Below, piece after piece: positions 6,471 to 19,459 of a stretch of 64,000 nucleotides of DNA; the first letter of the stretch is position 1; every line of letters starts with the position of its first letter. The notes beneath the pieces are model-generated. The model searched no databases, was not told the origin of the DNA, and saw nothing but the letters and a program-made list of their open reading frames with translations. The stretch comes from Eledone cirrhosa (Eukaryota), in NCBI GenBank assembly GCA_964016885.1, contig OZ024745.1, forward strand, positions 39,246,001 through 39,310,000. Direction: 5' to 3'. Both the position numbers and the translations under genes were made by a program.

Positions 6471-7233
6471 AGTATAGTAGAATACCTTATTTGCTGACCT
6501 GTCGTGGGATTGCAAGCGTTGGTAAGTTCTAGAAGGAAGACCTATTTCCAAACAAATATTAGTAACACTCATTCTTGGTTCGCATGTCATCTTTGATTTC
6601 TTGACCTAGGGGTCCTCCTGCCACCGGGCACAAAATCAAGCCATTTGCTCTCATCATTTAACCTCAGAAGAATAAACTGTCTAACTGGGTAAGCGCCAGT
6701 CATTTTGAAAATCCTCAGTTTGCACAGGGAATTCTCTGAATTTGGTGCAATTGTATCCGTACACGTGACCCTGTCTGCATTATTGCCAACGCTGCGTAAT
6801 TTAACTTGTAGGCTATATATATATACATTTAGCAGAAGCCAAACGGAAATCCCCACGTTGGTGTTGTGCTTCCAGTCATTGGAAAGAAACAAATAACAAC
6901 AAAAGTAGCAATCCAAAAAGAATCGCCAGATTTCATCTATGAATGGGAAACCTTCAGTACGAATATTCTAGAATATACAATCGGGGCTGCATACGGGGCG
7001 TGTGCGGTTAACATTTAAAATGTTTGTCACAAGTAAATGTAATAAATCATATGGATATTAAACACAGACACGTGCCGTGATAGATAAAAAAAGGTATATA
7101 TCTTGAACAAAAATATAACTTAACACATAAAGTAATAAAAACTACGATAGTTAACTTGATTAAATATAATGTAGCATTTGCAATATGTTTATTATTATAC
7201 GTAGTAATATTATTATTATTATTATTGTTATTG

Positions 7234-7367
7234 TTCTTTGAGTCGCTGTCATTGGTGTTATTTAACTGGAAAGTCTGTTGAAATGAATATCATGCCACTA
7301 CCAGCAGCCTCAGGCATTCAGGACGTATAGGAGGGTTCTTGATGTTCCAAGCAAGCATGCCTTTTGA
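7234..7367 (-). mobile_element. R4/Dong family A, 3'-terminal fragment
   Basis: Highly similar to the 3' ends at 10567-10700 and 36795-36926; flanked by (ATT)n. Confidence 0.85.
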
Positions 7368-7380
7368 ATTATAATTATTA

Positions 7381-9360
7381 TCTGGTTACTGGAAGCTGAA
7401 CGCGTCTTTCCCGCCGCTCAAAGCCTACAGAGACCGGATTAGCGTATTAGTTAAGCAGGCGTTGACGGGAGCGGGCGTCAACAACAGGTGGTGGTTCGCC
7501 CTGAAAAGGGCAATTAAAGTAGAGTCGATTAGGTTTAGCAAAGGAGTAGTGATAGAGGAAAATAGAGTAGAGAGAGAGCTAGTCAGAAAGCTAGATGAGG
7601 CGTTTAGGACAGGCATCGCAACCGACGTGCTTGCGGCGAGATTGGCACTCGACCAATTCTTCAACGCAAAACACGAAGGCTGTGTTGTCAGAGCTAGAGC
7701 AGCCCTTCTCTGAAACACGAGGGGACAAAAGCCGTCCAATGGGCCCGGGTGGCCGAGGCGCGACGTGGCAACAAAGCCACAATTCGGTCTTTGTCTGACC
7801 AAAACGGGTGCGTGATGCTCGAACCTGAGCCGATGTGTGAAGCTTTCCAGAGCACTTTGCTGAACTGTTCGGGAGCGTCTGCGGCCCGGATCGGGGCATG
7901 GATTTCAGTGCATACCTCGACGGACTGCCTCGGCTCTCGACGACCGCAGCACATTGTTGCGAAGAGTCAATAAAAGCCGGTGAAATATGGGAAGCGATGG
8001 CTAACTGCACAAGGGGTAAATTGCCAGGTTTAGATGGTCTGCCCTACGAGCTTTATGCATTTATGCCAGACTTGTTCGGTGACCTCTTGGCAGACGTCTA
8101 CTGCAACTGGCAGCAGAACGGGAGCATTCCCAGTTTTGTGAGCCGGGGAGCAGTGGGGCTGCTGAGAAAAGACCCGAACAAGGGGGTTGTTATCGATAAT
8201 TTCATGTCCATAACTCTGCTAACCACAGAGTTCAAGATTTTGGCCAAGGTGTTAGCAACGAGGTTGGCGCTTGTCATCAAGCGTCTGATGGGAGAGGCGC
8301 AGAAATGCGCCATTCCGGACAGATCCATACACGACAACCTCCACCTTATGCGATACTTCATAGAGAGGGTGGTTAAGGAACCTGGCAAGGGTGGGGCCCT
8401 GATCAACTTGGATCAATCCAAAGCATTCGAGAGAGTCGACCATCAGTACCTGGCGGTAGTCCTCGAGGCAGCTGGTTTCCGGCCCGTTTTCAGGGGTTGG
8501 ATCGCAGCAATGTACAGCGACATATGCTCAGTTGTGAGGGTGAACGGTCACCTGTCGCAGCCATTCTGCAGCATGCGCTCAGTCCGCCAGGGTTTTCCTA
8601 TCTCGTCCCTCTTGTACGTATTGGCTCTCGAGCCGTTATTGCACAAACTGTGGGCGATGAGCTGCGTCCCACGCGAACTAGGATGCGTGAAATCCGAGTA
8701 GGCTTACGCTTGTGGAGCTATGTCGAACAGTTGCTGTCGCGTGTGGGTCTGATCCGGTTGTCGACTGAGTCCATTGTGCATATGGTCTCGTCGTCTTCCT
8801 TCGATGAGGAAGGGCTGGCGGTTTTCATCTGCCTGGTGGCCATGGCGAAAGAGATTGTATTAAAAGGATTAAAGACAGACACTTTCCCTCTTCGGTAAAT
8901 CCCTAATTAACTTTTTCAAGTTTCACTTGAAGAGGAAAATCAGGGCGGAGAGGCAAGTGCTGCTTTCTAGCAAGTCTGTTGAAAGGTGGGTGAATGTAGC
9001 GAGAATGGTCCGAGTGAACGGGACTACTCTGAATATACGTCTGTAGTTTGAGTGATGGAAAAATTGAGAGAGGGCGCTTGCCCTGGTGGTCAGGGTGGCC
9101 GTGGTGTTTTGTGTGGTTTTCGCCACGAGTAACCCTCGGAGGTTTCCCCCCTATTGGGGAATTTTTCATTGTTTCAATTTTCATTTTTATTGTTTTTATA
9201 TATATATATGTTTCTATGTCCTATTTTCTTTTCTTATATAAATAATAAAAATATCTACACTTACCAAACCCACATCGCACAGTTCTCTACCGTCCTGTAC
9301 CGTCCTGTGCCCTCTATAATGTTTTTCGTTATGTCAGCCCTTGTGGCCAATAAAGAAATC
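7381..9360 (+). mobile_element. L1/Tx1 LINE, (ATT)n-associated, 5'-truncated with an internal deletion of about 1 kb near 8700
   Basis: Starts at GYWKLN; RT blocks (ITLLTTEFKILAK, LDQSKAFERVDH, SVRQGFPIS); jumps before YADD to LWSYVEQLL; ends GCCCTTGTGGCCAATAAAGAAATC then (ATT)n. Confidence 0.92.
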
Positions 9361-9386
9361 ATTATTATTATTATTATTATTATTAT

Positions 9387-17300: not shown

Positions 17301-17723
17301 TTCGGGATAAACACTGCAGGCATGGAGGTGCCGTCAGCCGGCCATGTCCGAGATGCGCGTAGGGAGAAGAAACCGTCCAGTGTCCGTGCATTGCTGACTT
17401 GTGGGTTTATGTCGAAAACCTGCTACCTGCTATCAGCTGAGGCCATCGTGAGGATTGCCCCGCCCTCTTCCTTTAGCCGGGAAGGGCAGGCAGTTTTTTA
17501 TCTGTCTGGTGGCCAATGCAAAAGAGATAGTATGGTAGACGCGTCTGAAAAGGCTGAAGACGGCACATACCTCTTCGGTGATGCCCTGATTAACTTTTTC
17601 AAATTTTATTTGAAAAGGAAAATCGGGGTAGAGAGGGAACTGTTCTCTTCCCGGCATTTTGTTGAAAGATGGGTGAGAGAGGCAAGAATGGCCCGAGTGA
17701 ATGAGTATATGCCTGTAAACTGA
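14380..17723 (+). pseudogene. Tx1 ORF2 (APE endonuclease-reverse transcriptase), disrupted
   Basis: Six or more ORF fragments collinear with the intact 1145-aa ORF2 at 49363-52800. Confidence 0.92.
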
Positions 17724-17953
17724 AGGTGGTCTGGTGTGAGAGGCGCTAACGTGGCTTTTTTAATGGGCTTTCTCCACGATAGCCTATTGCGTAATTTTTC
17801 ATTGTCTTTTTTTGTTACATCCTCTGTTTTTTGTTTCTTTTAAACGCAGAAATGCCCATTTGCGCCTCCTGTATTATCCTGCACTGTCCTTCATGTCTAC
17901 TTTGTTTAAACCCTTGTGGTTAATAAAGAAAGTATTATCATTATTGTTATTAC

Positions 17954-19373
17954 TCTTTGAGTCTCAGTCATTGATGTTAGTTAACTGGAAAGTTTGTTGA
18001 AATGAATAACAAGCCACTACCTGCAGCCTCATATTCAGGACGTATCGGAGGGTTCTCAGAATGTGGTAAATTGTTTACTTTGCATAGGTACCAGTGGATC
18101 ACCTTGCCCATCACATCATGTCTCCAGCCCTTATAGTGAGTCTGGGCTAGGTGTTTACACTCGGATACAGTGTGAGCCACAGTCTCCTCTCTCTCTCCAC
18201 AGATCCTGCACAGTGGGCTAGCCTCCTCCTTGTAAATGTCGTGTTTCAACCACTTCGTTTTGAGGGCCTGCTCCTGCGCAGCCATTAACATTCCTTCTGT
18301 AGCGTTTTTAAGGTCTCCTCTTTTCAAGCAGTTCCATGTCTCTGGATCTCTAAATTCAGTTTTCTCAAAGAAGGTACTATGAAGGGATTTTTCTTGAAGG
18401 CTGCTCTTTCTCCTTGATGTTATTTCTTCCTTGGACATGCCCTGGCCTATTGTCCCCTCCTTCAGTACAGTTCTGAGCATTGGCTCCTTACTATCAGTCA
18501 CGTATTTGTGTAGGTTGTTTTTCTCCATCTGAACACAGTCCTCTATGATGATAAGATCTCTTCCACCTTCAGATATCCTTAAGTAGAGTCTATCGACATC
18601 ACTCCTCTTGTGGAACATATTGTAGATAGTCAATAGCTTCCTAGTCTTCCTATCCATTTCTTTTTTTTCAGCAACATTCCATATCAGAATTCCCGCACTG
18701 TACCTAATAATAGACACACCTCGGGAATTTACTGCACTTATGGCATTACTACTGTTCAGATGTGACTTTAATACGCTCCTTACTCTCCGAAGGTATTCAG
18801 TTCTTATCAATTCCTTCATTTTTTTGTACTTCATGTTATCAGCGTCCAGAACGCCCAAATACTTGTATCCTTCCTCAGAGTCAATTTCCTTTATCATCTC
18901 ACCTATTGGTATCTGGATTCCGTTACTTCTGCTCAACTTACCCCTCCTCATCGCAATGACTCCAGACTTACTAATACCAAATTGCATACATATATCACTG
19001 CTGAAAATACGGACAGTGTCAACAAACACATCCAACTCCTTCTCACTCTTCCCGAAGAGCTTAAGATCGTCCATGAAGAGGAGGTGATTGATGGTAAGCC
19101 CTCCCTTTCCCAACCTGTATCCTGCTCTCACTTTTCGCAGTACACTGGTCAGGGGCATCAGGGCAAGGACAAACAACAGAGGGGACAGACTATCTCCCTG
19201 GAAGATACCTCTCTTGATCTTCACGCTTCCCAAGGATTCTCCAGTTGATGTTAACTCTGTTTCCAGGACTTCATACTTTTGCCCAACAACTGTCTGATGT
19301 TATCTGCCACCTTGAAGATCTCCGGGCTTTTGGTGATCCAAGAATGAGGCACCATGTCAAATGCCATTTTTGT
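17954..19373 (-). mobile_element. R4/Dong family A, 5'-truncated, RLE core deleted
   Basis: 418-aa ORF 17977-19233 with GIFQGDSLSP, LFMDDLK, YKYLG, CRICGEREETVAHTVSEC, RHD; lacks about 388 bp relative to the 35119 copy. Confidence 0.95.
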
Positions 19374-19387
19374 ATTATCATTAAAGT

Positions 19388-19459
19388 ATTATTATTATTA
19401 TTATTATTATTAGTATTAGTATTATTATTATTATTATTATTATTAGTAGTAGTAGTAGC

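Follow-up and report, generated by a model that had tools for sequence, protein, structure and literature searches.

Tx1-type and Dong-like retrotransposons share ATT/AAT tracts in opposite, near-fixed orientation in the octopod Eledone cirrhosa

A 64,000-nucleotide stretch of the Eledone cirrhosa genome (3.0 Gb; assembly GCA_964016885.1, contig OZ024745.1, here C5:39,246,001-39,310,000), hereafter the window, holds a 12-kb train of retroelements stacked in one (ATT)n tract, and it raises the question of why elements of two unrelated kinds should gather there on opposite strands. One kind is a Tx1-type family whose endonuclease is of the apurinic/apyrimidinic type (APE); the other comprises elements resembling Dong of the R4 clade, with a restriction-like endonuclease (RLE). 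A sequence-only reading of the window had proposed that Tx1 converged on the microsatellite used by Dong, that the two always lie on opposite strands and that each insertion leaves target for the next. We hold with considerable confidence that one Tx1 family of the APE type shares (ATT/AAT)n tracts with two Dong-like families of the RLE type, that the two kinds face opposite ways with near-fixed orientation, likely because they nick and prime on different strands, and that trains grow in this way. The two trains of the window are composed as follows (window coordinates; loci elsewhere in the genome are given by L and C numbers).

7190..7233, plus strand: (ATT)n tract, left edge of train 1
7234..7368, minus strand: DongA 3' stub of 135 nt, 87% to the 3' end of the full-length DongA L172
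7369..7380, plus strand: imperfect ATT spacer
7381..9360, plus strand: Tx1-ATT, 5'-truncated, with an internal deletion of ~1 kb, 3' end intact; RVT_1 match
9361..9386, plus strand: (ATT)8 spacer, across which Tx1 and DongB lie tail to tail
9387..10520, minus strand: DongB, 5'-truncated, with an internal deletion of ~1 kb, RLE region retained
10521..10567, plus strand: (ATT)15 spacer
10568..12211, minus strand: DongA, 5'-truncated
12212..12234, plus strand: ATT spacer that keeps register with the 5' end of Tx1 (ATT|GGCG)
12235..17932, plus strand: full-length Tx1-ATT, its open reading frames ORF1 and ORF2 (APE, reverse transcriptase (RT), zinc finger) interrupted by stops and frameshifts
17933..17952, plus strand: imperfect ATT spacer, with a 12-bp direct repeat at ~19371-19382 (possible duplication, weak)
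17953..19374, minus strand: DongA, 5'-truncated, with a ~390-nt deletion through the RLE region
19375..19577, plus strand: right edge of train 1, with (ATT)n as far as 19445 and (TAG)n beyond
31571..31729, plus strand: left edge of train 2, made up of (ACT)n followed by (AAT)7
31730..35067, minus strand: Tx1-ATT, both ends missing, with an internal deletion of ~2.5 kb
35068..35120, plus strand: (AAT)17 spacer
35121..36930, plus strand: DongA, 5'-truncated
36931..36955, plus strand: (AAT)8 spacer
36956..37136, minus strand: short interspersed element (SINE) of 181 nt, in Tx1 polarity, with a 3' stem-loop like that of the Tx1 3' end
37137..37148, plus strand: (AAT)4, right edge of train 2

Comparing the window with itself and with full-length copies bore out the proposed order and strands of the six elements of train 1, DongA(-), Tx1(+), DongB(-), DongA(-), Tx1(+), DongA(-) at 7234-19374. 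The claim that they are parted by short ATT runs stood in that all five spacers read ATT on the plus strand, but two of these (7369-7380 and 17933-17952) are imperfect and lack a perfect (ATT)3. The second group likewise proved to have all polarities reversed, with Tx1(-), DongA(+) and SINE(-) at 31730-37136 in AAT runs. Every element copy in both trains is damaged, the six of train 1 being truncated, internally deleted or stop-bearing. Proof of insertion order was sought in the 12-bp direct repeat that flanks the last DongA of train 1, but this evidence was downgraded: three of its bases match the element, the flank of the other window DongA is similar, and DongB lacks long duplications.

Throughout the genome, exact sequence patterns at element ends gave a polarity far beyond chance. 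In-register ATTATT followed 8,318 of 9,671 Tx1 3' ends, and AATAAT followed in 27 matches at 22 sites, while DongA 3' ends (10,090) were followed by AAY repeats in 8,461 cases and by ATTATT in 6. The 5' junctions agreed: in-register (ATT)3 preceded 453 of the 482 full-length Tx1 5' ends, the ATT run there ranging from 0 to 21 units. As background, two ATT units occurred in 146, and two AAT units in 144, of 4,753 21-nt windows away from elements (~3% each). When element ends at most 32 nt apart were paired, 461 tail-to-tail junctions of Tx1 and DongA 3' ends were found, against no same-strand junction of a DongA 3' end with a Tx1 5' end; among Tx1 copies, 49 junctions were of the allowed 3'-to-5' type and 9 sites of the forbidden tail-to-tail type, of which 4 stem from sister families that occupy TA tracts, and among the 5 inspected several proved to be hairpins or short inverted copies. 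Short inverted copies of the Tx1 3' end also oppose an element across its tail in L192, L193 and L195, as in a fold-back. The opposition of Tx1 and Dong is thus a genome-wide rule, holding at ~99% with rare exceptions rather than always.

The same rule appeared in a set of 190 fetched loci plus the window, chosen as best matches and including some duplicated segments; L064/L070/L071/L072 and L042/L043, segmental or tandem duplicates on C18 and C2, are therefore not independent in its counts. ATT adjoined 82/87 Tx1 3' ends (AAT none), and AAT adjoined 70/72 DongA and 44/44 DongB 3' ends. At truncated 5' ends, a class that also contains internal breaks, Tx1 had ATT in 26/53 and AAT in 1/53, DongA had AAT in 56/76, ATT in 1 and both in 1, and DongB had AAT in 38/55 and ATT in 3. 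Neighbouring Dong and Tx1 copies were on opposite strands in 55 pairs and on the same strand in 4, two of which likely reflect false matches to a part of the DongB reference that resembles a SINE; pairs within a kind were nearly always on the same strand (Dong/Dong 53/53; Tx1/Tx1 21, with 1 opposite), and the SINE sided with Tx1 (24/24 same) and opposed Dong (18/18). In a tract-centred sample (40 stretches of C1, surrounding the tracts that were listed first), a library element lay beside 46 of 65 tracts and 67 of 69 element ends kept the rule, both exceptions flanking one mixed tract in L283.

Tx1-ATT has two ORFs, the second of which (P0004, from L155) encodes APE (PF03372, E 1e-13), RT and a C-terminal zinc finger, with APE catalytic motifs N, E, Y, DxN, D and H that align with L1 ORF2p; intact frames of 1152 amino acids (aa) are found in L155, L157 and L169. 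The best characterised match of ORF2 is Xenopus Tx1 ORF2 at 325 bits (human L1, from a different database, gave 182 bits), and the closest named relative is a protein of Argonauta hians with 69% identity. In an RT tree of 26 proteins picked from the matches (21 Tx1-like, 5 Dong-like), the ATT family, a sister family found in TATC repeats (below) and the Argonauta protein grouped with a support of 100/99; this tree has no L1 row and gives no firm link to Xenopus Tx1. The Kibi/Koshi lineage is marked by a TC or TTC target, whereas the Tx1 elements here have ATT or TATC; Kibi and Koshi sequences are absent from the tree. Five Tx1 copies (L297, L301, L303, L304, L308) have an unchanged ORF2 with a different 5' untranslated region (UTR) and ORF1.

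DongA (P0005) and DongB (P0006) share 40% protein identity, and both encode RT, a CCHC knuckle and a C-terminal PD..D..K motif aligning to that of R2 (weak, per-domain E 0.042), with no APE. Their N-terminal region shows a conserved W..W helical block, with no zinc finger in the alignment and no Pfam Myb match; for the R4/Dong clade, a diverged Myb/SANT N-terminus without zinc fingers has been described (PMC7998251). No named Dong or R4 protein appeared among the 120 listed homologue matches, in either of two listings, and the Dong label therefore rests on domain order, target and junction. Bombyx Dong has a 5' HDV-like (hepatitis delta virus) ribozyme; Rfam gave no match to one on L157, L175, L181 and L091, no descriptor search having been made. 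A 5' UTR of ~400 nt is common to DongA (L172, L174, L175) and DongB (L178, L181, L185) at 79-92%, while their ORFs are unmatched as DNA, and an exchange of 5' UTRs between the two co-targeting families is possible.

We then asked whether the ATT next to Tx1 is target or tail, using the first 30 of 349 Tx1-ATT copies whose 3' tract ends after two units. Of the 18 with their 5' end in the locus, 10 showed a direct repeat of at least 11 bp, compared with 8 of 306 mismatched flank pairs. In nine of the ten, the repeat was 14-19 bp long (lengths count 1-3 bases that also match the element) and started at the first ATT past the last base of the element, indicating that the ATT of these copies is duplicated target with no added tail; some duplications also contained unique bases adjoining the ATT. 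Since five or six ATT units are copied, target stays on both sides of a new Tx1, in keeping with the proposal that each insertion leaves target for the next. The notion that the runs are mere 3' tails missing from 5' junctions was not upheld, given the ATT at 5' ends and the duplications. A tail-only control was provided by a LINE (long interspersed element) with an RT domain match, which we take from its motifs to be CR1-like (L273:1-1535 and 16 other places): ATT followed 16 of 17 listed 3' ends and stood at 0 of 11 distinct 5' junctions, and in L051 its tail runs into a Tx1 5' end.

Target-primed reverse transcription starts cDNA synthesis from the strand that was nicked, which is the complement of the element's sense strand. 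Judging from junction polarity, Tx1, which reads ATT, would be primed on the AAT strand, an AAT end pairing with AUU at the 3' end of its RNA, and Dong, which reads AAT, would be primed on the other, ATT strand; nicking and priming on different strands would likely account for the near-fixed opposite orientation. A second Tx1 nick 14-19 nt downstream would copy five or six ATT units, whereas Dong would split the tract, ending in (TAA/CAA)n, with no long duplication. An AUU leader may aid 5' joining and so raise the 5' ATT rate of full-length Tx1, and every insertion would add target, so that polarised trains grow, some being extended by tandem duplication. The exact nick within the ATT unit cannot be read, since RNA end and target share bases.

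Several observations weigh against this reading. The tenth duplication-positive Tx1 copy (L354) is doubtful and inversion-like, and 8 of the 18 short-tract copies have no duplication of at least 11 bp. None of 8 DongB copies (2 of them one duplicated locus) has such a duplication, pure AAT lying on the 5' side in 6, so that the case for Dong leans on 5' junctions and the literature. ATT at the 5' end is commoner among full-length (94%) than truncated (49%) Tx1 copies, a difference that could stem from an AUU leader at the 5' end of the RNA, and 26 of the 53 truncated Tx1 5' ends have neither repeat, though many of these are internal breaks. Of 16 inspected sites at which AAT follows Tx1, 13 revert to ATT and 1 is unclear, but 2 are truly reversed: the 3' pieces L233:1297-1521 (225 nt) and L234:1481-1523 (43 nt) have AAT on both sides and Dong polarity, and were possibly brought in by Dong proteins or by a template jump. 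Dong 5' ends in L189 and L283 sit after ATT. Finally, empty alleles of train 1 and of a TATC-flanked element (below) were sought in public contigs from one sample and in restriction-site-associated DNA (RAD) reads from three others, all of which break at the repeats and give no informative joint. A joint of 6831 to 19709 was rejected as an empty site, being only a 20-nt SINE-tail match; a flank search for an allelic copy from an unplaced contig found none; and paralogous trains on C18 and C2 were discarded as filled/empty pairs, being segmental or tandem duplicates.

The 181-nt SINE links Tx1 to the supply of tracts. Its head is tRNA-like, with A and B boxes read by eye, and its 3' end resembles that of Tx1 in having a stem of 3-4 bp, a CUUGU loop and then GAAA-NN-ATT, with no long identical tail. 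In a search that fixed the loop and left the pairing free, the stem read AACC/GGUU in 57 Tx1 ends, UGGC/GCCA in 33 and UGGC/GCCU in 23 SINE ends, and UGCC/GGCA in 21 ends of the TATC family, so that it covaries between the three. Among 75 copies, 22 were flagged for duplications, ~10 of them clean (10-19 bp), at looser sites starting with ATTA or GTTA. The SINE likely uses Tx1 proteins. Of 67,123 tracts of (ATT)5 or longer, 28,602 (43%) begin at a GAAA-N-V end of the Tx1/SINE type, against 100 in the backward control, and these elements thus border much of the target pool; the tails of the SINE and of the CR1-like LINE would likely seed new tracts. On the 3' side of Tx1, ATT tracts often turn into (AGT)n (window 19446-19577 and 31571-31709; L011, L026, L030, L168, L351).

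The 12-kb train of the window is ordinary for this genome. A region chosen for its clustered Tx1 ends, C1:37.10-37.215 Mb, contains about a dozen Tx1, all minus, and about fifteen Dong, all plus, over 113 kb with one 10-kb gap; in this gap (L298:3553-7820) lie other RT-like ORFs, with one weak RVT_1 match. Duplication lengthens trains as well, since a 3.4-kb unit of DongA+DongB, repeated in tandem, is what distinguishes paralogous trains on C18. Tx1 3' ends with an identical junction recur every 6.07-6.08 kb at C1:441,098,534-441,134,912 and C2:188,056,358-188,074,641, a spacing that suggests tandem arrays of full-length Tx1.

The window also contains an intact member of the sister Tx1 family.

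49099..54838, minus strand: intact Tx1 of the TATC family, with an ORF1 of 473 aa and an ORF2 frame of 1153 aa, flanked by (TATC)n at 49031-49098 and 54839-54919

It has near-identical copies elsewhere, up to 99-100% across the 3' end, and its ORF2 is 67% identical to that of Tx1-ATT. The family makes duplications of 14-20 bp (L095, L106, L117), and TATC lies next to 20 of its 32 3' ends and, among truncated 5' ends, next to 16 of 32. At least three further Tx1 subfamilies (L196-L225; 75-85% to the TATC family) terminate in tracts rich in TA or TATC, with a 17-bp duplication in L223. The hairpin loop of APE endonucleases is known for its role in target choice; here the loops of the ATT and TATC families are almost alike (TNRIGSSRS and ANRSGSSRS). 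Rather than the microsatellite itself, Tx1-ATT targets a pyrimidine followed by ATTATT, a short motif that recurs at every third base of a long tract.

These families bear on the strongest alternative, which we regard as a serious contender though clearly less probable than strand-specific nicking. It holds that the RNA sets target and polarity: with little selectivity, Tx1 would nick both strands of AT-rich DNA, and extension would be confined to primer ends that pair with the 3' AUU of the RNA. The differing targets of two families with nearly the same loops speak for it, as do the base before the duplication in L343, L344 and L347, which equals the last C of the element, the looser sites of the SINE, and the help that annealing gives to SART1 priming (PMC7265360). 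Two points speak against it, namely that a swap of endonuclease domains moves the target between SART1 and TRAS1 (PMC7265360), and that 453 of 482 full-length copies carry ATT at the other end of the duplication as well, 14-19 bp away from the primer.

It is quite improbable that the trains owe their existence mainly to a few founders that recombined or were duplicated in tandem, or to assembly error. Duplication is real in the C18 unit and the 6.07-kb arrays on C1 and C2, two DongA copies of the window stop at almost the same 5' point, and the train is not spanned by public contigs; yet window copies of one family are 78-94% identical and unlike in their lengths and deletions, and individual target duplications mark separate insertions. 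As for the common stop, the copies ending at 19374 and 35121 are joined by an unlinked one (L267:3385) at nearly the same point of the RT region, which suggests a truncation hot spot. Slightly less likely still, and largely refuted by duplications that take in unique bases, is the idea that the runs are tails made by the elements, with 5' ATT from a co-transcribed leader or microhomology and clustering because TE-rich (transposable element) DNA tolerates insertions: the share of tracts starting at Tx1/SINE-type ends and the untargeted tails of the CR1-like family would fit, but the right-strand repeat precedes 5' ends truncated at many positions, the tail-only family lacks 5' ATT, and tolerance cannot account for the 461 to 0 contrast of junction types.

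How far does the co-use of ATT tracts have precedents? Dong targets (TAA)n in most insects, molluscs and cnidarians (PMC7998251, PMC3774820, PMC3812793; target and RLE also in PMC3636483), as the sequence-only reading had stated and as the AAT at DongA 3' ends agrees. Like Bombyx Dong, DongAg and DongBg, the families here have RT, a C-terminal restriction-like endonuclease and a sense-strand (TAA)n, and the TAA|G polarity of the 5' junction is that of Bombyx Dong (PMC3774820); nothing essential differs, save that two families share a target and a 5' UTR. Microsatellites are known Tx1 targets from Kibi in (TC)n, Koshi in (TTC)n and crocodilian Tx1 in (TTCC)n/(TTTC)n (PMC4494074, PMC4640811). 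The elements here are likewise Tx1-type APE elements in microsatellites, but they use ATT, or TA/TATC-rich tracts in the sister families, share ATT with an RLE clade and form an octopod branch of their own in our tree. TRAS1 and SART1 of Bombyx enter (TTAGG)n in opposite directions (PMC7265360), again two families in one short repeat, though both are APE-type and telomeric, whereas here unrelated endonuclease classes meet in interstitial arrays genome-wide. SINEU of crocodilians is likely mobilised by Tx1-Mar and shares its target preference (PMC4494074), a likeness to the probably Tx1-mobilised SINE here, which has a tRNA-like head and the 3' stem-loop in common with Tx1. Octopus annotations report active Dong-R4 and L1-Tx1 families and hotspots, the accessible parts containing no target analysis (PMC13282606, PMC9115989), and the accessible parts of the mollusc SINE literature mention no Tx1 partner for an octopus SINE (PMC4824008, PMC5786205, PMC4758252). 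In the literature searched, we found no publication that describes a Tx1 specific for ATT or the co-targeting of one site by Tx1 and Dong, although Repbase, Kojima and Fujiwara 2004 or the supplement of PMC4494074 may already record such a family. The ATT target thus appears new for Tx1, while the general pattern has precedents in Dong/(TAA)n, Kibi/Koshi and TRAS/SART. Among these precedents for shared targets one may also count R1 and R2, an APE and an RLE element converging on the multicopy 28S ribosomal RNA gene; they occupy separate sites in the gene and do not renew the target, whereas here insertion renews it.

These results add ATT and TATC to the known Tx1 targets, show an APE and an RLE enzyme probably converging on one repeat from opposite strands, and offer a possible explanation for TE hotspots in a 3-Gb octopod genome, where ATT microsatellite markers would often sit at element ends. 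As two Tx1 families 67% identical have open ORF2 copies and different targets, the choice between endonuclease and RNA end is directly testable. A bolder proposal, which we advance tentatively and think rather doubtful, is a self-feeding niche, in which Tx1, its SINE and the CR1-like LINE would make most ATT microsatellites, Tx1 and Dong would fill these from opposite strands into polarised arrays of at least 100 kb, and sister Tx1 families would switch target (ATT, TATC, TA) mainly by the RNA 3' end and not by the endonuclease loop; if true, it would constitute a natural, re-targetable insertion system.

Elsewhere in the window, five SINE copies are clustered at 19691-20939 in both orientations, making inverted repeats; long palindromic or inverted-repeat elements resembling miniature inverted-repeat transposable elements (MITE-like) lie at 56309-57194, 46170-46591 and 44037-45329; and a 52-bp tandem repeat occupies 37198-37426.

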